This document shows, piece after piece, positions 1 through 58,975 of a DNA stretch of 64,000 bases; position 1 is the first letter of the stretch, and each line of letters begins with the position of its first letter. This DNA comes from Naegleria gruberi (Eukaryota): assembly GCA_000004985.1 (NCBI GenBank), contig GG738897.1; one strand, 5' to 3'. The notes beneath the pieces were generated by a model. That model had not been told where the DNA came from, made no database searches, and saw only the letters and a program-made list of their open reading frames with translations. The translations under genes and the position numbers were made by a program.

Positions 1-233
1 ACCAAACCCAAACCCAAACCCAAACCCAAACCCAAACCCAAACCCAAACCCAAACCCAAACCCAAACCCAAACCCAAACCCAAACCCAAACCCAAACCCA
101 AACCCAAACCCAAACCCAAACCCAAACCCAAACCCAAACCCAAACCCAAACCCAAACCCAAACCCAAACCCAAACCCAAACCCAAACCCAAACCCAAACC
201 CAAACCCAAACCCAAACCCAAACCCAAACCCAA
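1..233. repeat. Telomeric hexamer array (CCCAAA)n, about 39 perfect tandem copies; G-strand repeat is TTTGGG
   Basis: Perfect 6-bp periodicity from base 1 to 233, C-rich strand 5'->3' at the left end of the window as expected for a left telomere; the repeat stops abruptly at 'cccaattctaaaaatag'. Confidence 0.9.
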
Positions 234-300
234 TTCTAAAAATAGAATTCTTCTAAACCCAACGTTCAAACCCTAGCCCAAAATTATAAACTTATTCAAA
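234..300. repeat. Degenerate telomere-associated transition zone (variant units CTAAACCC, CAAACCCTAGCCC)
   Basis: Directly read: 'ttctaaacccaacgttcaaaccctagcccaaaa' carries C3A3-like and CCCTA(A/G)-like variants immediately internal to the perfect array. Confidence 0.4.
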
Positions 301-935
301 TATCATTAAATTTTATATCATTCGATAGCCAATGATGAGTAGAACAACGTGTTATATTTAGTTTTTCAATTTATAAAATATTAACTTTGTAAATAGTGTC
401 AGATTAAAATTTGTAAAATGAAACTATAGGAAGAATGATAATTTCAAAATCCTTTAATGAGATTATATAGTATATATCATCATTAACAACATCTATAATC
501 ACTCTCATATCAAATTTCAAAAGTTCAAGTCTGTAGATATAAAAGTATAGAGGGAAAAGGGAAGTTGTGAGGTACAATAGGTCAACAATAACTTTTGAGT
601 TTCTCATCAAAACATATTGAATCCTGACATGAAAATGTTCCATTTGATGAGTATACATCGAATATCAAATTTATTTTGACTTTCATATTTAAAGATTTCT
701 TCCCTCAACCATCATATGGTCAACTAGGTATGAAAAGGATAAAATCTTGAAAAAGAACCACTATTGAAACTTTACCAACATGATGTAGATGATCTATAAT
801 GATGTAGAGTTCAATATCATATCATAAAAATCAGAAATGGTACCGTAGGAAGATAATGGTTGACTTTATAAGGTTGACTTTAAGGAAATACAAGTCAGAC
901 CAAGTCTATCAAATACATCACTTCAATCAGCAAAA

Positions 936-3900
936 NNNNNNNNNNNNNNNNNNNNNNNNNNNNNNNNNNNNNNNNNNNNNNNNNNNNNNNNNNNNNNNNN
1001 NNNNNNNNNNNNNNNNNNNNNNNNNNNNNNNNNNNNNNNNNNNNNNNNNNNNNNNNNNNNNNNNNNNNNNNNNNNNNNNNNNNNNNNNNNNNNNNNNNNN
1101 NNNNNNNNNNNNNNNNNNNNNNNNNNNNNNNNNNNNNNNNNNNNNNNNNNNNNNNNNNNNNNNNNNNNNNNNNNNNNNNNNNNNNNNNNNNNNNNNNNNN
1201 NNNNNNNNNNNNNNNNNNNNNNNNNNNNNNNNNNNNNNNNNNNNNNNNNNNNNNNNNNNNNNNNNNNNNNNNNNNNNNNNNNNNNNNNNNNNNNNNNNNN
1301 NNNNNNNNNNNNNNNNNNNNNNNNNNNNNNNNNNNNNNNNNNNNNNNNNNNNNNNNNNNNNNNNNNNNNNNNNNNNNNNNNNNNNNNNNNNNNNNNNNNN
1401 NNNNNNNNNNNNNNNNNNNNNNNNNNNNNNNNNNNNNNNNNNNNNNNNNNNNNNNNNNNNNNNNNNNNNNNNNNNNNNNNNNNNNNNNNNNNNNNNNNNN
1501 NNNNNNNNNNNNNNNNNNNNNNNNNNNNNNNNNNNNNNNNNNNNNNNNNNNNNNNNNNNNNNNNNNNNNNNNNNNNNNNNNNNNNNNNNNNNNNNNNNNN
1601 NNNNNNNNNNNNNNNNNNNNNNNNNNNNNNNNNNNNNNNNNNNNNNNNNNNNNNNNNNNNNNNNNNNNNNNNNNNNNNNNNNNNNNNNNNNNNNNNNNNN
1701 NNNNNNNNNNNNNNNNNNNNNNNNNNNNNNNNNNNNNNNNNNNNNNNNNNNNNNNNNNNNNNNNNNNNNNNNNNNNNNNNNNNNNNNNNNNNNNNNNNNN
1801 NNNNNNNNNNNNNNNNNNNNNNNNNNNNNNNNNNNNNNNNNNNNNNNNNNNNNNNNNNNNNNNNNNNNNNNNNNNNNNNNNNNNNNNNNNNNNNNNNNNN
1901 NNNNNNNNNNNNNNNNNNNNNNNNNNNNNNNNNNNNNNNNNNNNNNNNNNNNNNNNNNNNNNNNNNNNNNNNNNNNNNNNNNNNNNNNNNNNNNNNNNNN
2001 NNNNNNNNNNNNNNNNNNNNNNNNNNNNNNNNNNNNNNNNNNNNNNNNNNNNNNNNNNNNNNNNNNNNNNNNNNNNNNNNNNNNNNNNNNNNNNNNNNNN
2101 NNNNNNNNNNNNNNNNNNNNNNNNNNNNNNNNNNNNNNNNNNNNNNNNNNNNNNNNNNNNNNNNNNNNNNNNNNNNNNNNNNNNNNNNNNNNNNNNNNNN
2201 NNNNNNNNNNNNNNNNNNNNNNNNNNNNNNNNNNNNNNNNNNNNNNNNNNNNNNNNNNNNNNNNNNNNNNNNNNNNNNNNNNNNNNNNNNNNNNNNNNNN
2301 NNNNNNNNNNNNNNNNNNNNNNNNNNNNNNNNNNNNNNNNNNNNNNNNNNNNNNNNNNNNNNNNNNNNNNNNNNNNNNNNNNNNNNNNNNNNNNNNNNNN
2401 NNNNNNNNNNNNNNNNNNNNNNNNNNNNNNNNNNNNNNNNNNNNNNNNNNNNNNNNNNNNNNNNNNNNNNNNNNNNNNNNNNNNNNNNNNNNNNNNNNNN
2501 NNNNNNNNNNNNNNNNNNNNNNNNNNNNNNNNNNNNNNNNNNNNNNNNNNNNNNNNNNNNNNNNNNNNNNNNNNNNNNNNNNNNNNNNNNNNNNNNNNNN
2601 NNNNNNNNNNNNNNNNNNNNNNNNNNNNNNNNNNNNNNNNNNNNNNNNNNNNNNNNNNNNNNNNNNNNNNNNNNNNNNNNNNNNNNNNNNNNNNNNNNNN
2701 NNNNNNNNNNNNNNNNNNNNNNNNNNNNNNNNNNNNNNNNNNNNNNNNNNNNNNNNNNNNNNNNNNNNNNNNNNNNNNNNNNNNNNNNNNNNNNNNNNNN
2801 NNNNNNNNNNNNNNNNNNNNNNNNNNNNNNNNNNNNNNNNNNNNNNNNNNNNNNNNNNNNNNNNNNNNNNNNNNNNNNNNNNNNNNNNNNNNNNNNNNNN
2901 NNNNNNNNNNNNNNNNNNNNNNNNNNNNNNNNNNNNNNNNNNNNNNNNNNNNNNNNNNNNNNNNNNNNNNNNNNNNNNNNNNNNNNNNNNNNNNNNNNNN
3001 NNNNNNNNNNNNNNNNNNNNNNNNNNNNNNNNNNNNNNNNNNNNNNNNNNNNNNNNNNNNNNNNNNNNNNNNNNNNNNNNNNNNNNNNNNNNNNNNNNNN
3101 NNNNNNNNNNNNNNNNNNNNNNNNNNNNNNNNNNNNNNNNNNNNNNNNNNNNNNNNNNNNNNNNNNNNNNNNNNNNNNNNNNNNNNNNNNNNNNNNNNNN
3201 NNNNNNNNNNNNNNNNNNNNNNNNNNNNNNNNNNNNNNNNNNNNNNNNNNNNNNNNNNNNNNNNNNNNNNNNNNNNNNNNNNNNNNNNNNNNNNNNNNNN
3301 NNNNNNNNNNNNNNNNNNNNNNNNNNNNNNNNNNNNNNNNNNNNNNNNNNNNNNNNNNNNNNNNNNNNNNNNNNNNNNNNNNNNNNNNNNNNNNNNNNNN
3401 NNNNNNNNNNNNNNNNNNNNNNNNNNNNNNNNNNNNNNNNNNNNNNNNNNNNNNNNNNNNNNNNNNNNNNNNNNNNNNNNNNNNNNNNNNNNNNNNNNNN
3501 NNNNNNNNNNNNNNNNNNNNNNNNNNNNNNNNNNNNNNNNNNNNNNNNNNNNNNNNNNNNNNNNNNNNNNNNNNNNNNNNNNNNNNNNNNNNNNNNNNNN
3601 NNNNNNNNNNNNNNNNNNNNNNNNNNNNNNNNNNNNNNNNNNNNNNNNNNNNNNNNNNNNNNNNNNNNNNNNNNNNNNNNNNNNNNNNNNNNNNNNNNNN
3701 NNNNNNNNNNNNNNNNNNNNNNNNNNNNNNNNNNNNNNNNNNNNNNNNNNNNNNNNNNNNNNNNNNNNNNNNNNNNNNNNNNNNNNNNNNNNNNNNNNNN
3801 NNNNNNNNNNNNNNNNNNNNNNNNNNNNNNNNNNNNNNNNNNNNNNNNNNNNNNNNNNNNNNNNNNNNNNNNNNNNNNNNNNNNNNNNNNNNNNNNNNNN

Positions 3901-3965
3901 NNNNNNNNNNNNNNNNNNNNNNNNNNNNNNNNNNNNNNNNNNNNNNNNNNNNNNNNNNNNNNNNN
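936..3965. other. Assembly gap (3,030 N)
   Basis: Uninterrupted run of n; the 1145-aa, 1036-aa and 1015-aa ORFs crossing it in the ORF track are translation artefacts (poly-X). Confidence 1.
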
Positions 3966-4293
3966 ATTATCCAATAATAATAATTTAAATAATTATGCAA
4001 ATAATAATTATAATAATTGTAACAACAATACAAACAATGGTCCTATTAACCTCCATAACAACACGATGATGAGTGTGTTGCATCATGTCAATAATATGAT
4101 CGACAATGAAATGGATTTCGAATTAAAAATGATGATTAACAAATTAATGGATAAATTAAACCAAACAGAGGAAAAAAACACTTTATTGAAATTAATTGGT
4201 TCAACCAGGAATTTACATTATAGAACCCCAGGTAATTCCGAGAAAAACTCAAAATTGAAAGAATTACTATTCAAACTTCTTAATGATGAATAA
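3966..4293 (+). CDS. 3' end of a gene truncated by the gap; Asn-rich low-complexity protein, C-terminal about 108 aa
   Basis: Open frame entering from the N-run and ending at TAA 4291-4293 (…NNTMMSVLHHVNNMIDNEMDFELKMMINKLMDKLNQTEEK…); AT-rich 3' flank. No recognisable domain. Confidence 0.4.
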
Positions 4294-5742
4294 TTAATTT
4301 TTTAATAAAAAATTTCGTAAAAATGTGATTTTTTGCCTGACGATTTTTACCAAATTTTTGTTTAAATGTAAGGTAATGGATTTGTAAAATCTATATTGCC
4401 TAAAATATGATCAGAAGCCATGGTTTGAACCATGTAATGTACAGGAGAAAGTTCAGAAGCAATGAATGAAAATACATTATCACTGACTTTGGAAACTAAA
4501 CTGGCAGAATTCATTAATTGCTTGATTGGATCCAATGTAAGAAGCTAACCAAACTGAAACAGAACAACAAACTATCAAACAAATCATGATGAATATGATT
4601 AAAATTCTCAATGAGCAACATCCTGAACAGCATGTCTTTCTTCTTGTTTTACCCTCAAGCAAAACCTTTCAAAATTCAGCTTAGTTTTACTATTATTCTA
4701 AACTAAACTTACCTGCTTGTCATTATCTGTTGGTTGGATTTTGTTCATATTTTTTTTGTCTTTAGATAATAAATTTCATACTAAAACATAGAGAATTGAC
4801 TTGCTTGATATCTTGTGAAGTCTGTAATCTACAAAGAGATATTTGAAAACCAACTCAATAGTCTGCCTCATTACAATAAGTTAGCATCGGCAGTTGAAAT
4901 GACACTTAACAACTTATTGAAATATACAATGCCATGAACAATCATTAAATTATTAAATAAGGAAGATGACAGACCATATTTAGATTGAATGAAACATCAG
5001 CTGAAATCAAATGTTTCCTCTTTTTCATCATTTTCATCTCCATAGTAAAATATTTTCTAAATACTTATCCAATGTCAAAACTCCTCCACCTCCAAGCATT
5101 ATTCTCAAGAATAGCTCAAATTGAATATTCCCCTTAATGAGAAATAATAAATCATCTATAAATTCTAATCAATTGAAGGATTTTTTGTTGTCCACCAGTG
5201 GAATGAAGAATCCGTCAATAGTAGAATAGTAATTTTATTAATCATCAAGTAAATTTCAAATCAACAAACACATCTCGGGTGTTGTTAGAACAGGTTAGTT
5301 TGATGTTCTAATAGTATTTAAATAGTATTCCTCAAGTTTACTCTTTGAAATTATTTTTAATTTGGCTCAAAGTTGATTTTTCATCAAAACCATCAAAATC
5401 GGCACATCTACTTGGTCATCACAAAAACCATCAATTTGAGATTGTTCAGAATGGTCAATAGTATGTGTGTGGTGAATCTTGGAGATTGGATTTTTGTCTT
5501 CATCGGAATTCAGTGCCGATTCCAAGATTATTTTCGACCATACCTCATCAGTACTTTACCAAATCAAAAAGTTTTATATACCATCTTTCAATAGTATGTC
5601 ATTGTCATGGTGGAGTTTCGTCGTCAATAACCACACATGACATGGAAATGCTCCAATAGGTTCGGAGAATCATCCCAGGTTTTATACCTTAATAAAAGTA
5701 TTCTTTTCACCTCTAACACTTTTTTAAAAAAAATTCTCCAAA

Positions 5743-6809
5743 TGTCTTTACTTGAAGAAGGGGCATCATGTGGTGCCGTTAGGAATAGTATTAGTTGTTT
5801 ACCCTTCGAAATGGTTCTTAACATCTTGAAATATTGGCACATAGTTGAGGCGCTTCCTAAGAAACAAGTTTGCAAATCATGGAATAGTATAATTGATGAA
5901 ATATTCACTTTTTATCCAACATCAAGACACCCTTATGGTCTTTCCATTAAAAATCATTTTCTAATGTTGGATCTCGAGGAAGAAGATAGAAAGGATTTTT
6001 CTTGGGATCGAATGATCCTTAATTTTCTAGAACATGTCGTTCCAAAAGATTGTGGTGTTCTAACAATTGTATTAAGGGTAGAAGAGGGTGAGGTTCTTTG
6101 TGAAGGTTTCCAAACTCAAATGTCAAGAGCAGCTAAGGAGTATGATGTGAGAGGGTACATCCAAACATCCTATCACGATATTACAAATAATGATTGTAAG
6201 AAAGTGTTTGATGTTTGTTGCCAAGGAATACCAACAGTGCTTGTTTATCTCTTGGAATGCATTCATGGAATTCAAGGGGTGCTATTAATTGATTGTAATT
6301 TTGTTTACAGATCAACAATCAGTTCTAAATTTATTATCAAACCAACACTAATGACCGATATTACAACATGCAAGAGAGAAGTCATATCAGTGAATGATGA
6401 TGGGCCAGTATGCAACGAAACCGTTATTACTTCAATTGAATCAGTATTCTCTTTAAATACTTTTACTATTTCTAAGGCTAATCTTGCTCACATTAAGGTG
6501 GAAGGTATGCTCCCAGTATTTCTTCTCACAGTTATAAATACACGCAATTGTCCACCACTTATCATTCAAGTACTTTCTTTATATATGTATCAGGAATTCA
6601 GAGCATCAGTATGTGAAATCATTTGTGATATAGCTTTTACAAGTTTTCCTAAATTATTACTCCCAGTTCTTAACAACCCAAAAAGAGGTGCTGAACCTAG
6701 TAAGTCATCTGAAGAAACTTTTTGGAGCGAGTTTATAGAGGTTTGTTCCAGGTTTTTGCAAAATAATCAAAGAGCTAGACATATAGTTCTTTGCTCCTCT
6801 ATTAAATAA
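5743..6809 (+). CDS. F-box domain protein
   Basis: Motif LPFEMVLNILKYWHIVEALPKKQVCKSWNSII near the N-terminus fits the F-box consensus (LPxEil..Il.yL…VCk.W). The ORF track starts at 5637, but the stretch before 5743 reads through a T8/A8 tract typical of 5' UTR, so ATG 5743 (MSLLEEG…) is preferred. Stop at 6807-6809. Confidence 0.5.
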
Positions 6810-7052
6810 TGTGATGAAAGACATTTTACAAGAACCATGCCTCTTGTGTTATCATATAGTGGAAGCATCATCCTCAAGTTGATCCAATAAATATTATTTC
6901 CGTTCAGAATTAATTTACATGAAGTGTTATCAGCTTTTTCAAATGACCTATAAGTTTCACTCCTTTAGATGTAATAGTGCCATGGTAGATATTGAGGTGT
7001 TGCAATTCTGTTAATTGAATGATGCTTTCTAATTGCTCATCGTCAATGGAAT

Positions 7053-7814
7053 TTAAATTATTAATTTACAAATTGCTTGAACTCCTTCTAAATCAATGGT
7101 ATTATTATGAATATCTAAAGTTCTCAAATTTCTCAACCCATTTCCAATAAATTTGGCTCCTAATGAACTAATATTATTTTGTCCAATAGAAAGAAAAGTC
7201 AGCGAATCCATACTACTTATTAATTGAGCTCCTTCCGCTGTTATATCATTCAGAGTTGCTAATCCAATTGGCTCCTTCACCACCAATGGTATTTGGTTAA
7301 TAAATAATTCAGGTAAATTGTGTAATTCACTGATATATTGAGCACCCTCCATGGTAATATAATTACATCTTAAATCAAGAGCCGTTAATTGTTTCATTTC
7401 GCTGAGAGCCTTCGTCTCGGCTGTGCCAATTTTGTTTGGACCAATACCCAAATTGGTTATATTTTTCATTGATACTAGAGATTTGATTCCTTCAAGATTG
7501 AAATCATTAGCAAAGCATCTCAATTTTGTTAAATTTTTCATCCCACTAATTATTTTAATTCGATTATTATCAATCGAGTTGAAACTTATATCAAGTGCTA
7601 TTAATTGATCCATTTCATCATTTCCATGATTTCTATTAAAGCAAATGTCCAAACCAGTCAAATTTCTCATCATTTTCAAACATTTCCAATAATTTTCAAC
7701 CGAAACTTGTTCCGTACGAATTAATAACCTCACAATTCGTCCCAGAAATCTACTATTCATCAATAAACAAATCTTTTCATCATTGTTTTTTAAACTTGAT
7801 AGACAATTCTGCAC
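7053..7814 (-). CDS. Leucine-rich-repeat protein, probably the LRR part of an F-box/LRR protein (upstream F-box-like mini-ORF 7957..7841 is out of frame by 1 nt)
   Basis: At least 8 tandem about 24-residue LRR units (LTxLdIxxNxIgxeGaxxIsxlxxL). Upstream minus-strand ATG at 7957 encodes MSNKKEGWNSIQIFSDDICYEICSFLNSWFILNNLSLI* with an F-box-like pattern; it overlaps the start of the LRR frame across a homopolymer-rich stretch (aataatttatctttaatttaaaac). This implies a 1-nt frameshift (sequence error or pseudogene) or a non-canonical intron. Confidence 0.5.
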   Translation of the reverse strand: MQNCLSSLKNNDEKICLLMNSRFLGRIVRLLIRTEQVSVENYWKCLKMMRNLTGLDICFNRNHGNDEMDQLIALDISFNSIDNNRIKIISGMKNLTKLRCFANDFNLEGIKSLVSMKNITNLGIGPNKIGTAETKALSEMKQLTALDLRCNYITMEGAQYISELHNLPELFINQIPLVVKEPIGLATLNDITAEGAQLISSMDSLTFLSIGQNNISSLGAKFIGNGLRNLRTLDIHNNTIDLEGVQAICKLII

Positions 7815-8541
7815 GTTCCGAAATAATTTGCAAAATTGTTTTAAATTAAAGATAAATTATTCAAAATAAACCAAGAATTTAGAAATGAACAAATTTCGTA
7901 ACAAATATCATCAGAAAATATTTGAATAGAATTCCATCCCTCCTTCTTGTTGCTCATTTTTTTTTAATAAATTAATAAATTACAAAATATCACAAAATAT
8001 GAAAGATTATTTAATACCTTCTCATACCCAAATTTAACAACTATTCGATCATTCCGATAATAATTAATCTAACTATTCAAACTCTAATAACAATTTCCAG
8101 AAAAAATCACAACCTTCTCAACCAAGTAACTTCTTCTTCCGACATAAAAAACCAACATCAATTCATTAATCCTCCAAAAAAGCTGACCTACCACCACATA
8201 ATAGTCCACGGTCGTGCAATCATTCAATTTTTTGATTATTATAAATGTAATTCATTTCTCATCATTTGATCTGAATGTTCCATTTCAATCATGTTTTGGC
8301 GCCAAAACGGAAATGACTTTCTGAAAAAAAATAGGACCATGAAACAGAGCTTAGATGATGCGCCACTAGAACCACACCAAGAGTCCATCATTGAATTTGT
8401 GATTGTCAAAGGAGCCTTTTTTGAAAAAATTAAGACAACATCAAATAGACTGTGTAACCATTCATCTTTTTGCATCACTTGGTGATTCTACACAAGCAAT
8501 ATTTAACAATAAGCAAGGAATAATAATAATTAACAATAATA

Positions 8542-10080
8542 ATGGATGTGTCTTCACCGCCAATGAGTGGCAACAATCTAATAGATCATAATCATACTAA
8601 CACTAACACCAATCAAACAGCTAGTTTTCAAACAACTTCTACCTCTCCAATTACACAACCAGTAGCATCACCCGAAAATCAAACAATTACTTCATCAACA
8701 GGAACCAAGAAAGTCACCATAACATCACCAGCACTAACTACAACAAAACAATCTCAGCAGCAGCATGGTTTTGCCCCAAGTGAAAGTGGAAAATCAGGAA
8801 GTTCGTTTAGTCATAGTAAACTAATGTTACGAACATGTTGTGGTGTGGTAGAGTTGACTTCAATGAAATTAGCATGTTTAGCCGGAATGGTGGTAACAGT
8901 GTTTGGTTTGTTGGTTTTAGCAGCTATTTCTATTGCTTCTTTCGTTATGGCCACAAATAAGTCAACAGATATTTTAATTAATATTGGACGTGCAAGCTAT
9001 CTCTTTGAAAGTTCAAATGCTTTTGTTGTAAAGTATGTCTTTACTAGTACTCCAAATAATGGGGCTAAGTTTGTTGAAGCTCAGCTTTTGTACTATAATT
9101 TCACTAATGAAATGGGGGATATTGTGGCGGATATTGTAGGACAGTTGAATGAACCATCTCTGAAATCTTTAATTAATGCCACATCCGTTGAAGCAATTAA
9201 ACTTTTACAAAAGGAGAATTCTCAAATATTAGTCCAGTTCAATTTAGGACAAGCACAAGATGTATATGCTAGATTGAACTCTGACACTTACAATGACATT
9301 CTCTCCAAGTTCAAGAGTGGATTGGATGGTTTAGTTTCTTTTATTCAGGATAAGGAAAAGGAAAAGGATACTCAAGTGTTGGCAATTACATCTGTTCAAT
9401 TGATTGTTATTGTAATATCACTATTTGTAGTATTACCCATCATTGTATTTGTATTTACCTTTGCTATTAATCGTGACTCATTATATTTGGAAAAGATCCG
9501 TCGTGCCAATGCTATCATGTTAATAGACACAATGGAAGATGATGGACTGAGAGCTGTATTCAAGATACATTGTGAAAAGGAAAAGTCTAGTGAAAATTAT
9601 TTGCTTCTGGAAAAGATTCAATATTATAGATCATTGTGTGAACGTTCCTTAGAACTGCAAGCAAAACTATTCCGAGACGATCCAAACAGCGATAGTTCAA
9701 GTGATATTTCAGAATCAGCTCATCCTGCAAAGAAAAAGAAGGAATCTTCTCTCGAAAGAGAATATAATGAATTGGAAGTTAAAAAGTATGAAGTTGCTTT
9801 TGAAATATTTACTGAATTCTTGGAAGTTACTGGCGTTATGTCAGTAAATATTTCACACTTGCTGGTTAATGCTGTTAAGGATAAATTGGACAAGTATAAT
9901 GATAAGCAAATTGATAGTCTTCCAGAGGATATGTTCAATGTTTTGGAAAAGGAAACATGTCTTGTAATGATGGATACTCACCACAGATTCAAGCAATCTC
10001 TTGCTTTCCAACGTGAAATGAAGATTGACAAGATTAAAATTGACCAGCTCAAGAAGAAGAAGGAAACAGACGATTTTTAA
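8542..10080 (+). CDS. Two-pass membrane protein with a C-terminal RGS (regulator of G-protein signalling) domain
   Basis: Two hydrophobic helices (LACLAGMVVTVFGLLVLAAISIASFVMA; LAITSVQLIVIVISLFVVLPIIVFVFTFAI), then LRAVFKIHCEKEKSSENYLLLEKIQYYRS … YEVAFEIFTEFLEVTGVMSVNISHLLVNAVKDKL … MFNVLEKETCLVMMDTHHRFKQSLAF. This matches the RGS consensus (F..FL..E.s.EN..F……Y… I…fl……vNi……f…a…vy.lm…..rF..S). Confidence 0.55.
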   Translation: MDVSSPPMSGNNLIDHNHTNTNTNQTASFQTTSTSPITQPVASPENQTITSSTGTKKVTITSPALTTTKQSQQQHGFAPSESGKSGSSFSHSKLMLRTCCGVVELTSMKLACLAGMVVTVFGLLVLAAISIASFVMATNKSTDILINIGRASYLFESSNAFVVKYVFTSTPNNGAKFVEAQLLYYNFTNEMGDIVADIVGQLNEPSLKSLINATSVEAIKLLQKENSQILVQFNLGQAQDVYARLNSDTYNDILSKFKSGLDGLVSFIQDKEKEKDTQVLAITSVQLIVIVISLFVVLPIIVFVFTFAINRDSLYLEKIRRANAIMLIDTMEDDGLRAVFKIHCEKEKSSENYLLLEKIQYYRSLCERSLELQAKLFRDDPNSDSSSDISESAHPAKKKKESSLEREYNELEVKKYEVAFEIFTEFLEVTGVMSVNISHLLVNAVKDKLDKYNDKQIDSLPEDMFNVLEKETCLVMMDTHHRFKQSLAFQREMKIDKIKIDQLKKKKETDDF

Positions 10081-10198
10081 ATCTGTGTAGATAGATTTGT
10101 TGCATTACATTACCAATTATTCAAATCGGATTTGAATAAACTCTGAACAAGTCAAGTATTGACTTTCCAATAATTTTAACATTTTACAATTTAAAAAA

Positions 10199-11848
10199 AT
10201 GTTAACACAACGAGCACGAAATATTCTCATCACAATATTACTTTTAAATTTCATCTTTCTTCTCACATACTCTATATACCTTTCTAAAAAGCAGTCCAAG
10301 TTTAAACTTTCGAATAATAATACGAAATTAATGACATACTCGGAGGCAGGAATATCAGAAGTATTGTGTTTTACCACACATACTCATAGACGAATAGAAT
10401 ACTTTGCACCCGATGAATTGGATATAATTACACCAAACTCTCCACAATCTCTCATAGCTGACCCTTACAAAATTTGTATTGTTTCTAATATGTGTATTGA
10501 CAGTAGTGGAAAGGTCCATGTTTTTCTTCCTGACACAAGTGATGTTCCCAATTTACATGCAAGCAATCCATTCTTCACTTCTGATAGAGATTTTATTCGA
10601 AAGCTACTAATGGACCATCCAATTAATGGAGTTCCACGTTTTCCAATACCAAGTCGTGTAGAAGTTAGAGATATTACATTGAACGAATTTCAAAACTTGG
10701 AAACCAAGAAATCAAATCATCAGTTTCGAATGACTTCCAAGTGGATTTCTCTTCATGCTCCACTTTTTTGGTCGAATTATTATCACACAATTATTGATGG
10801 ATTTTACAAAGTTTTTGTGTTATTGAGACAGGTTTCACATGTGATGGAATATGTCTCGAGTTTTGGAGCCAAATCAACTAGAGTTTCTCCAACGTTTTCC
10901 TATGATTCAATGGCTGATATTCTCACAAAGAAAGATTATGAATTATTCATCTTGACAAAGAGTCCTAAATTTCCAAATTGGGTCAACCGAGTTGTAAATA
11001 CTACTGAGAAGGCATTTGTTCAACCAGTGATTGCGGATATTGGAAATGGAGAGGATTCATATACATGCTCATCGAAAGGAGTTATTGGAATTTCATTTTC
11101 ACATTATAGAAATTTATTTTACACATTTGAATCACGTGTTGTTCCAAGACCTCCAAAGGAAGCCATCTTAATGACCAATCAATACTTTTCATTTATCAAA
11201 CAATCATATGGATATTCGAATGAAAAGAGAAAGAATCCGAAACTTAATATTTTACTGATTCGTAGAGTGAAAAACAGAGTCATTACAAATTTGGATGAAA
11301 TTTACAAAACATTGAAAATTAATTATGGAGATGTTTGTGAAATACAAATTAGGGAAAATTTCAAACATTCATTTGATGAACAAATTGCTTACCATCAATG
11401 GGCAGATGTCATTATTGTTTCACATGGAGCTGATGAGACGAATACTTTCTTGACAAGAGAAGGAACAGTAATAATTGAAGTAGAAAGTCCTCAGCATTAT
11501 GAGCCATACTTTCCAGTTTATGCTCATTTATTGAAATTGAGACATTACATGTTCAGAGGAAGTGGAGGAGATAAGAATTCGAATAGAATAGTAGATATTG
11601 ATGCATTTGTTAAATTTTTTGAAGCTGCATTATGTTATGGAGATTCATTTATTGGAAATGAGAGGATAAAACAAAATTCTGTTGATTCTGGATTTTGTAA
11701 ACGAATCAAATTGGAAAACAAATACAGTGAAACAGATGTGAAAGAATTATTATCAAATAGAATGAACATTTTTGAGAGATTTGACACAGATCAAAGTTTA
11801 ACTGAAATTAAGGGAGAATATTTGATTGGATGTTGTCTAAATGAATAA
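10199..11848 (+). CDS. Type II membrane glycosyltransferase, GT61/DUF563-like
   Basis: N-terminal signal anchor (ILITILLLNFIFLLTYSIYL). C-terminal motif ADVIIVSHGADETNTFLTREGTVIIEV resembles the GT61 (EOGT/xylosyltransferase) block x-HGAGLTN-x-F-x-x-G-x-vvEl. Luminal domain of about 500 aa. Confidence 0.45.
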   Translation: MLTQRARNILITILLLNFIFLLTYSIYLSKKQSKFKLSNNNTKLMTYSEAGISEVLCFTTHTHRRIEYFAPDELDIITPNSPQSLIADPYKICIVSNMCIDSSGKVHVFLPDTSDVPNLHASNPFFTSDRDFIRKLLMDHPINGVPRFPIPSRVEVRDITLNEFQNLETKKSNHQFRMTSKWISLHAPLFWSNYYHTIIDGFYKVFVLLRQVSHVMEYVSSFGAKSTRVSPTFSYDSMADILTKKDYELFILTKSPKFPNWVNRVVNTTEKAFVQPVIADIGNGEDSYTCSSKGVIGISFSHYRNLFYTFESRVVPRPPKEAILMTNQYFSFIKQSYGYSNEKRKNPKLNILLIRRVKNRVITNLDEIYKTLKINYGDVCEIQIRENFKHSFDEQIAYHQWADVIIVSHGADETNTFLTREGTVIIEVESPQHYEPYFPVYAHLLKLRHYMFRGSGGDKNSNRIVDIDAFVKFFEAALCYGDSFIGNERIKQNSVDSGFCKRIKLENKYSETDVKELLSNRMNIFERFDTDQSLTEIKGEYLIGCCLNE

Positions 11849-16934: not shown

Positions 16935-19900
16935 ATGAAGATTTTGCTTTACGGAATGGCCGAGTCAGGTCTTTCCACATTATTCAACCAATTTAAATTA
17001 TTACCCAACTCTGTACCATTACTCTCTCAAAACACCACTCAAACAAATTCCAATACTTCTTCTAACAATACAAGTAATAATAATAATTCTAATTCCAATA
17101 ATAATGAATCAAATAATAATATTGATGGTAATAATCATCATCAAGAACAAATAACATCCCTAACTGAAGATACAACAATTAAACAACATGATGAAAATAA
17201 TAATAATACATTCTCATCACCCGAAGAAGATGAAACTCCATCATCATCATCAGCAATAACATTATCACCATCAACAGATACTACCAAACCAGCAGTACCA
17301 AGTCAAGCCCTCAAACCATCACTCAAAAGACCAACCATCAGTCCTCTCCAATTTACTCCTCCACCTTCAAACTCTAGAAAAACAATAACAACATTAGCAA
17401 ATCCATCATCCTCTTCAACCACCTCCCCTCAAGAAGTCTTCCAATCCAACCATCCAACCCACATTAAATTCCTCAAGAGACGTAAACAAGCCTTTAACGA
17501 ACATTTTTTGAAAAATCTCCCTAATGCCTTCCTTACACAACTCTTAATATCTTTCAAGTTGTTGATTCATCATGCGGAGAGGAGGGACTTGTTGTTTAGT
17601 ATGGATGAGAGGCTACAGGAGTTTTTGATGGAGAGAATTGTGAGGGATGCGAGGTTGGAGAGTAATTATGTGAAGAATTCTTCATCTACCTTGTTGATTG
17701 TTGCTCCTTCTTCATCATCAAGTAATAATATTAATATTAATAATAATAATAATAATTTAAATTTATTGAATGTGGTTACTTCATCATCATCTTCACAACA
17801 ACTCTCTTCATCCTATTCGGATGTTGAAACTCTGATTGTACCTCCATCATCAAGTATTAATAATAACAAATCTACTACAAATACAACAACTAACAAGAAT
17901 TCTAATACAAAGGCTATGATAGCCAAGTTTAATGGAAAGGAAATTGTTCCAGATTCATCATCATCATCATCATTAGCATCCTCTTCTTCTGCTTCTACTA
18001 CTAACAATCAAGCAAATCAACAAAATCATCACCATAATATTAAATTTGAATCCAAATACAAGGGAGTAAGAAATGATTTGGAGAAGATTCTGAAGGAACA
18101 ACAAAAGGAATTCATTGAACCTTTAAAGAAGGAGAAGCTAACCCATCCAATTCGTCAGAGAAGTTTGAGCGAGTCCTTGTTAGTGAGTCAAATTAAAAAG
18201 TTAAAGCAAAAGAGAGGAAAGGACACACATGAGGAGGAAGATTATTCACAATTGTTACCTCCTTCTACTAGTAAGAATAACAACAATACTAGTCTTACTT
18301 CACTCTTTCAACAACAAGCAACAAGTTCAACATTAACAAATATCATAGAAGAGGAAGATATTGACACTTCGTCATCAACAGATGAGAGCAGCAAACAACA
18401 CTTGCCAGCTCAATATTGTGAGCATTGCCAAAAGATGGCTCATGCAAAATTGAAGGTAAAACCTTCTTCCGAACAACAACAACTCGATGCTAAACCAAAC
18501 AAGTATCAATACATGGATTGGAAAATTGAAAACACCAAAGCTATTGTTGAGAGAATTAAAAAGATTACAGACATTAATCAGTTATTTGGTGTCAGATTGA
18601 GAAGTGAATTCTTGAAGGATTGTTGTGAATTGTGGGAGAATCATATTGGTTTGCAACATTGTTTCCACTCGTATTCAATCTTTAAATGTCCAGATGGTGG
18701 TAATATATTCTCATCCCTTCCAGCAATCATGAAATGGATTGTGAAAAAGTATCTTCTCAACATGCCAACAAAATGCTTCAATTTTGATAAGCAAGCTATC
18801 TCTAGTATGGAAATTCATGCTTCAGAGCTTGGTGAAGATATTGCCACCTCGTGTGAAAGTATTCCTCCTGAGATGGCCATCCTTCTCAATACCAATTTCA
18901 ATGTCGAGTCCAGTAATACTACAGCATCTGCAAGGGATTACAAATTCAAATTCGAGGTTCCTACATCCAATAACTTTCAAGAGTTGAAAGTTAGTGTAAC
19001 AAGCTTGATTCCATCATCACCAAACACTTCATCTTCGAATACTTCATCTCCTGTTGGCACTCCTGATTGGAATATTCTTGGTACATCCTTTACAGTTCCA
19101 AACGATGATAATTATTCCAAATCTGATTCAGAGTTGGTCTATCCAGTCAATAGTGGATTGTATGCTCTCTCCAAGTATAGAGCCTCAACTGCTATGAATA
19201 AGGATGTCATTTCAGCAATGAGACCACTCGTATTGGAAGAGAGAAAAAAGGAAGAGAGGGAAGAAAAGAAGAGTTCAATGAGTCCACGTAGATTATTAAG
19301 CTTTTTCAAATCAACAGAAAGTGCCAACAGTGAACAAGGAGCACCACCAGTTAAACCTGAAAAAAAGACCAAGAGGATTAAAAGGCAAGATACCTTTTCA
19401 GTATTCAGCGTCATTACAATGGTAAGTAGTTAATTATAGGGTTTTAATTTATATACATTTTTATTTAGGGAGGAATCTCACCAAAGGTATCATTCTTAAA
19501 GAATGAATGGATAATGTGTTGCTATGCTTCAAATATGGTTGTCTTTGCCGTGAATTTGTGTGACTATCTCAAAAGTATTTTGGTTAAGGTTGAATACAGT
19601 GACAAATTGATGGAAAAGAAAAAGATTAGCTACAGCTTGGAAAAATTTGAACAGTGCGCGAATGGAAAGTACTTTTCTGAACTTCCAATAGTTTTGTGCT
19701 TTACCTTTGTTGATGTTTTTGAACAAGGTCAACACTATAATCCACTAACAGAACAACAAAAATCAGATATTGAACAAATTGTACAACAGCTCAATCCAGC
19801 ATCTTATGGACAAAAGAAGACAGAAAATGCTCCTCTTAATGTTCATACCAAACTTGATCAAAAGAGAAAACCTTGGCATGATTCTTGTGAATTTATCATT

Positions 19901-20440
19901 CAACAATACATTCACTTGGCAACAGCAGAACAAAGAAGAAAGCAAGTAAGAGAGTCATTCGTCGTATTGAATTGTATTGACAGTAGAAGAACAGCCCAAG
20001 TATTGGTGAATGATATTTTATTCAATGAAGATCTTCTTGCTAATGAATTGGAAACTGAAACATCTCAAACTGCTACCAAGGGTAATGATGGTTCAAAGAG
20101 TGACAGATCTCACTATAAAAAACCTGTGGATAATGGAAAGGCAACTCAACCTGACTATACCCAATACTATTTGAGAAGATGCAAGACAAGCACTACAGCC
20201 AAAGATCAACCAACCAAAATATCCAAGCAACGAAAGAGTATCAATAGAAAGGGAGGAGAAAAACTCAAACAAGAATTGAACAGAAACAAGAGATTGAGTT
20301 GGTCAAACAATGGCAGTATCAAATTGAAAAAACCACAGGAAAATATTGTCGTTCTCGATGAATACGCCAATGAAGATGAAGAAATTGAGGAAACTCCAAG
20401 AAGAAGACGTAAGAACAGCTATCAATGTTCTCTTCAATAA
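16935..20440 (+). CDS. Large Asn/Ser-rich low-complexity protein of about 1150 aa; 2 exons (16935..19421, 19469..20440)
   Basis: ATG|GTAAGT donor at 19421/19422 and tttatttag| acceptor at 19467-19468 (47-nt intron) join in phase 0 to the 19514 ORF frame (…ITM|GGISPKVSFLKNEWIMCCYAS…). Long poly-N/S tracts; no recognisable catalytic domain; the Cys/His cluster HCFHSYSIFKCPDGG is unassigned. Confidence 0.45.
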
Positions 20441-33146: not shown

Positions 33147-33325
33147 CCAAACATTCAAGTTTGTCTGTCAAGCAGATCCAAAACCAGCCAAGTCAGTACT
33201 TCCATCGAGTGCTTTTGCCTTACAAGCTCCAACAATTACTTTGGTTTTAATTTCAATGTTGGCAAAAATAATCAAGAACATTGTCAAGAATCTTAATAAA
33301 ACAAATAAAGTCTTTTAAAAATAGA

Positions 33326-33398
33326 TGCTGACGGACGGGATCGAACCGGCGACCAATGGCTTATTAGACCAACGCTCTACCTACTTAACTACGCCAGC
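33326..33398 (-). tRNA. tRNA-Ile (anticodon AAU)
   Basis: Reverse complement GCTGGCG-TA-GTTA-AGTAGGTA-GAGC-G-TTGGT-CTAATAA-GCCAT-TGGTC-GCCGG-TTCGATC-CCGTC-CGTCAGC-A. Acceptor stem 7/7 paired (one G·U), T-arm GGTTCGATCC, anticodon loop CT-AAT-AA; near-identical core to metazoan tRNA-Ile(AAT). Confidence 0.8.
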
Positions 33399-33563
33399 AT
33401 TACATCTATTAATTTTACAAATACCATCTAAAATCTTTATCATCCTTAATTCCTTATTTCCCCATCTACATTTTTGAAAAAACCACATGAAAAGATGTCA
33501 CCTATTTTATTTCCACTTTAAAATCTAAGGAAGCCTAAAATTATTTGTTTCTCAAAACAAAAA

Positions 33564-58904: not shown

Positions 58905-58975
58905 TGCATTAGCCGGGAGTCGAACCCGGGTCACCAGCTTGGAAGGCTGGTATGATACCGTTACACTACTAATGC
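58905..58975 (-). tRNA. tRNA-Gly (anticodon UCC)
   Basis: Reverse complement GCATTAG-…-CCAGC-CTTCCAA-GCTGG-TGAC-CCGGG-TTCGACT-CCCGG-CTAATGC-A. Acceptor 7/7, anticodon stem 5/5 with loop CT-TCC-AA, T-arm GGGTTCGACTCCCGG. 3' half near-identical to metazoan tRNA-Gly(TCC). The D-arm is atypical (short, poor stem), as in many Gly tRNAs. Confidence 0.75.

Follow-up and report, generated by a model that had tools for sequence, protein, structure and literature searches.

Terminal TTTGGG repeat array on a Naegleria gruberi scaffold, a probable telomere of the type already proposed for this species

Analysis of a 64-kb window (the whole stretch of Naegleria gruberi DNA considered here) showed the presence of an array of CCCAAA hexamers at its first 233 bases. 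The array is very probably a telomere made by telomerase at one end of an N. gruberi nuclear scaffold. A chromosome terminus with a TTTGGG/CCCAAA telomere had been proposed in the first-pass annotation of this DNA, and this proposal is borne out by the position of the array and its canonical strand orientation.

N. gruberi had been assigned TTTGGG as its candidate telomeric repeat in an in silico survey of the published genome (Fulneckova et al. 2013, Genome Biol Evol 5:468; PMC3622300), the introduction of which describes telomere information for this species as previously nonexistent. According to the survey, its candidates were assessed by where they lie and how they are oriented with respect to the neighbouring sequence, and terminal position still requires experimental confirmation. 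The array in the window shares organism, unit, terminal position and orientation with that candidate, was likewise read from N. gruberi genome sequence, shows no substantive difference from it, and represents one instance of it. Accordingly, TTTGGG as the candidate telomere of N. gruberi is already known, the array being one instance of a published observation, and the novelty implied in the first-pass annotation falls away. We infer from the same paper that TTTGGG is used at all chromosome ends of N. gruberi. In the literature searched, no reports were found on Naegleria TERT, telomerase RNA, telomerase activity or proof by Bal31 or TRAP, nor any on Naegleria telomeres later than the 2013 survey. 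The array confirms, for one scaffold end, a candidate telomere already published for N. gruberi, a free-living model excavate; this is of little import beyond bookkeeping. It was a wrong taxonomic guess, now corrected, that had made the repeat seem surprising.

Repeat array and its inner border

The array opens with ACCAAA at bases 1–6, which has one mismatch against the unit, continues with 37 perfect CCCAAA hexamers at bases 7–228, and closes with a partial CCCAA at bases 229–233, as read from the sequence and by regular expression search. Tandem Repeats Finder delimited it at 2–233, with period 6, 38.7 copies, 100% matches, 0 indels and a score of 464. With 37 units perfect and two imperfect or partial, the earlier figure of about 39 perfect hexamers, counted from base 1, is off by no more than two. 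The probe (CCCAAA)3, with at most one mismatch allowed, gave 37 matches, all of them inside 1–234, while the mean for 100 dinucleotide-preserving shuffles was 0.00.

The C-rich strand of the array is the plus strand, and (TTTGGG)n is carried by the minus strand. Since the C-rich strand lies at the 5' end of the plus strand, the G-rich (TTTGGG)n points 5' to 3' toward the left end. On its inner side the array passes into a junction region with degenerate telomere-like pieces, namely, CTAAACCCAA (also written CTAAACCC(AA)) at 253–262 and CAAACCCTAGCCCAAAA at 267–283; degenerate variants following the array had been described earlier, and they are indeed present. A 7-bp palindrome, AATTCTA/TAGAATT, is located at 232–249. 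The anatomy of the array, in particular its orientation and its one-sided decay inward, is that of a telomere.

Judging from general telomere biology, telomerase would copy a short stretch of its RNA that is complementary to TTTGGG; this template would probably hold the CCCAAA unit about 1.5 times, as in CAAACCCAAAC. The end would carry a G-rich 3' overhang, and the array, together with protective telomere-binding proteins, would cap it against degradation and fusion. Bases 234–300 would represent the decayed repeats usual at the inner border, and the AT-rich unique DNA beyond them would be the subtelomere. That 37 of 37 complete units are identical is in keeping with accurate synthesis from a template, and not with the mixed C4A2/C3A3 repeats of Paramecium.

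Table 1. Features of the 64-kb window and of metagenomic contigs with TTTGGG arrays (a full stop in the strand column marks features given as unstranded).
Sequence	Feature	Coordinates	Strand	Basis or remark
Window	Putative telomeric repeat array	1–233	-	38.7 copies, 100% matches, begins at window base 1
Window	Putative telomere–subtelomere junction with degenerate telomere-like pieces	234–300	.	Direct reading of sequence
Window	Unique AT-rich, putatively subtelomeric DNA without long ORF	301–935	.	Self-BLAST, composition
Window	Scaffold gap, 3,030 N	936–3965	.	Parts the 935-bp telomere contig from the gene-bearing scaffold
Window	First coding-like sequence, 3' end of an ORF starting in the gap	3966–4293	+	Asparagine-rich
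Window	First complete ORF, 390 aa, weak F-box-like domain	5637–6809	+	ORF list and domain scan
Window	LRR ORF	7053–7814	-	After the first complete ORF
Window	RGS ORF	8542–10080		Between the LRR and GT61 ORFs
Window	Glycosyltransferase 61 (GT61) ORF	10199–11848		After the RGS ORF
Window	Glyco_hydro_108 ORF, 225 aa	11906–12583	-	Pfam, E 1.6e-10
Window	ORF with degenerate G-alpha-like P-loop, 832 aa	16935–19433	+	
Window	ORF matching the C-terminal half of G-alpha	19514–20440	+	Pfam, below curated cut-off
Window	tRNA-Ile(AAT)	33324–33399	-	Rfam, gathering threshold
Window	tRNA-Gly(TCC)	58905–58975	-	Rfam, gathering threshold
L043	Ty3/gypsy-like RT-RNaseH-integrase ORF directly adjoining the telomere array	1–3762	+	
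L043	Subtelomeric PPR protein with DYW deaminase domain	5671–8631	-	Pfam
L043	PPR-like ORF	8705–11509	-	Similar C-terminus
L109	Subtelomeric PPR protein with DYW deaminase domain	3557–7603	+	Pfam

Subtelomere, scaffold gap and gene content

The flank of the array at 234–935 (702 bp) has a GC content of 0.275, a value within the bottom 2% for windows of its size. Its trinucleotide correlation with the rest of the window is 0.87, the 5th percentile for segments of the window being 0.84. This composition is compatible with Naegleria non-coding DNA, short of proof. No further copy of the flank is present within the window, since self-BLAST returned the flank itself alone.

Bases 1–935 are joined to the remaining sequence only through the 3,030 N of the scaffold gap, so the link from telomere to genes hangs on mate pairs, and the true adjacency of the array and the genes past the gap is presumed from this scaffolding. 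The first genes had been placed 4–5 kb from the end. Coding-like sequence, for which no Pfam match was found, begins immediately after the gap; farther inside lies the first ORF that is complete (Table 1). The earlier figure retains its value as a scaffolding estimate, as does any distance from gene to end, because the gap bases are N.

The dependence of the join on the N gap, together with a flank that is unique and has nothing in common with the rest of the window, leaves room for a different reading, in which a genuine N. gruberi telomere on the 935-bp contig was scaffolded onto the wrong end and the genes listed are not its true neighbours. The compositional agreement of the flank with the window speaks against such an error, no sign of a wrong join was seen, and this reading is considered unlikely.

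It is less probable still, and by a good measure, that the array is an interstitial telomere-like satellite, or that the left edge of the window falls within an internal block, and that no chromosome end is present. Many genomes contain internal telomeric blocks as well, according to the survey's treatment of its candidates (PMC3622300), and the 64 kb considered here are not enough to establish base 1 as the end of the scaffold. Against this, the array starts at base 1 itself, its first unit being imperfect and its orientation telomeric; no bases precede it within the window, and the two-sided flanking by unique DNA that characterizes an interstitial array was not found. The variant units are confined to its inner side, and a regular expression search across the 64-kb window revealed neither a second tandem CCCAAA/TTTGGG array nor one of the plant type, CCCTAAA/TTTAGGG. 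A telomere at the scaffold end is the preferred reading of bases 1–233.

Other features of the window include two tRNA genes, which are its sole Rfam matches at the gathering threshold. The Glyco_hydro_108 ORF is located about 12 kb from the telomere. Glyco_hydro_108 is a lysozyme-like family associated with bacteria and phages, and it is possible that this ORF was acquired horizontally. The 832-aa ORF opens with the degenerate G-alpha-like P-loop GMAESGLST and contains long low-complexity inserts. Taken as a pair, this ORF and the following one, with its match to the C-terminal half of G-alpha, resemble a single G-alpha-like gene of unusual size that is interrupted by an intron.

Organism and type of telomere

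Over 92% of its length, the GT61 ORF of the window matches a predicted protein of N. gruberi with 100% identity (EFC39682.1 / XP_002672426.1 / NAEGRDRAFT_52159; scaffold of 326,913 bp), and the GC content of the window is about 33% throughout. The genome is that of the heterolobosean N. gruberi, not of a dictyostelid, and the description of it as dictyostelid-like in the first-pass annotation is ruled out by these data. Heterolobosea are grouped with the euglenozoans in Discoba in the literature; N. gruberi is therefore unrelated to social amoebae. The standard genetic code, deduced earlier from in-frame stops, is in agreement with the long standard-code ORFs of the window, one of which is identical to the N. 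gruberi protein.

What gave the dictyostelid impression was AT-richness together with low-complexity proteins rich in asparagine and serine, features in which the window and Dictyostelium discoideum are superficially alike. D. discoideum is far more AT-rich than the 33% GC found here, and its chromosome ends are rDNA-derived. It belongs to another supergroup. The window has a simple repeat as its cap and contains no rDNA; no rRNA was matched in the 64 kb. With an N. gruberi genome and no rRNA in the window, comparison with the rDNA-derived ends of Dictyostelium is irrelevant. A dictyostelid chromosome end was rejected on the same two grounds, namely, the complete protein identity and the absence of rRNA matches from the window.

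The array resembles the canonical TnAmGo telomeres (TTAGGG, TTTAGGG and TTGGGG) in its short G/T-rich unit, its homogeneous tandem organization, the 3' orientation of the G-strand toward the end, and the degeneracy of the inner repeats. Its unit lacks the A of TTAGGG and TTTAGGG, and it is T3G3, in contrast to the T2G4 of Tetrahymena (TTGGGG). Macronuclear telomeres of Paramecium are mixed TTGGGG/TTTGGG (C4A2/C3A3 on the other strand) and thus have TTTGGG units in common with the array; the array of N. gruberi differs from them in being pure C3A3, in its standard code, and in the ordinary subtelomeric DNA that follows the end. A telomere of the Paramecium ciliate type was rejected because the array is pure C3A3, the ORFs follow the standard code and the protein identity is to N. 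gruberi.

The TTTGGG units of Paramecium and the position of the join in an N gap are all that favours contamination, in which foreign DNA (from a ciliate whose telomeres contain TTTGGG, for instance) would have been wrongly joined to the Naegleria scaffold, and with 37 of 37 complete units being C3A3, none C4A2, and the trinucleotide profile of the flank fitting the window, this origin is the most improbable of all those considered. The survey had moreover singled out TTTGGG as the candidate telomere of this very species (PMC3622300).

TTTGGG arrays in metagenomic contigs

When metagenome contigs were scanned for runs of eight CCCAAA units, at least 120 loci were obtained. Among the matches listed, 68 arrays are internal, many of them on GC-rich contigs, and 52 are contig-terminal, that is, located at most 30 bp from the contig end; of the terminal arrays, 41 are oriented as in a telomere and 11 the other way round. 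Many GC-rich contigs (L006, L023, L030, L047, L068 and L072, among others; GC 0.60–0.71) carry internal (CCCAAA)8–16 arrays, which are clearly not telomeres.

Correctly oriented TTTGGG arrays terminate all 20 contigs among the matches listed that come from JAESGV01, a metagenome assembly, and derive from an uncultured eukaryote (L004, L013, L014, L020, L039, L040, L042, L043, L051, L058, L060, L065, L070, L081, L086, L088, L089, L094, L102 and L109). The arrays comprise 8–18 perfect units each, and every one gives way abruptly to a different unique sequence. The contigs are AT-rich (GC 0.20–0.39) and contain standard-code ORFs of 1,000–1,350 aa. TTTGGG arrays cap contig ends, accordingly, in at least one other standard-code eukaryote. 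The scan thereby provides independent support for TTTGGG arrays as telomeres in standard-code eukaryotes, and the JAESGV01 result is not directly relevant to N. gruberi.

Comparison of the 120 metagenome loci listed with the window by tBLASTx gave no match, and BLASTN of the 702-bp subtelomere against the same loci gave none either; among these loci there is, therefore, no close relative of Naegleria and no shared subtelomeric element. Logan contig L001, which carries a GT61 homologue with 46% identity, was rejected as a counterpart locus, having no telomere repeat and synteny limited to GT61.

The AFG1-like ATPase of the JAESGV01 contig L086 has 37–43% identity to proteins of named taxa, and in a neighbour-joining tree it groups with that of the heterolobosean Acrasis kona (480 of 500 bootstraps, 26-taxon subset). 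On this single gene, the JAESGV01 organism is possibly a heterolobosean. A search with the DYW domain of JAESGV01 returned environmental proteins and distant plant matches, with no close named relative among them. We tentatively suggest, with rather more doubt than confidence, that TTTGGG may serve as telomere more widely within Heterolobosea and not be peculiar to N. gruberi. If this is true, the T3G3 template would be an old lineage character, and the contig ends of JAESGV01 would aid the hunt for heterolobosean telomerase RNA. For following this type of repeat through Heterolobosea, the metagenomic contigs ending in TTTGGG offer a modest starting point.

Subtelomeric genes of JAESGV01 are represented by the ORFs of L043 and L109 (Table 1), and at least two of these encode PPR proteins of the DYW type. 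Just inside the array of L042, the sequence (C-strand first) is CCCCAACCCCAACCCACCCAAACCCAACCCCAAG, in which C4A2 and C3A3 units are mixed; in the JAESGV01 organism, then, the template would seem to slip now and then, or variant repeats to occur.
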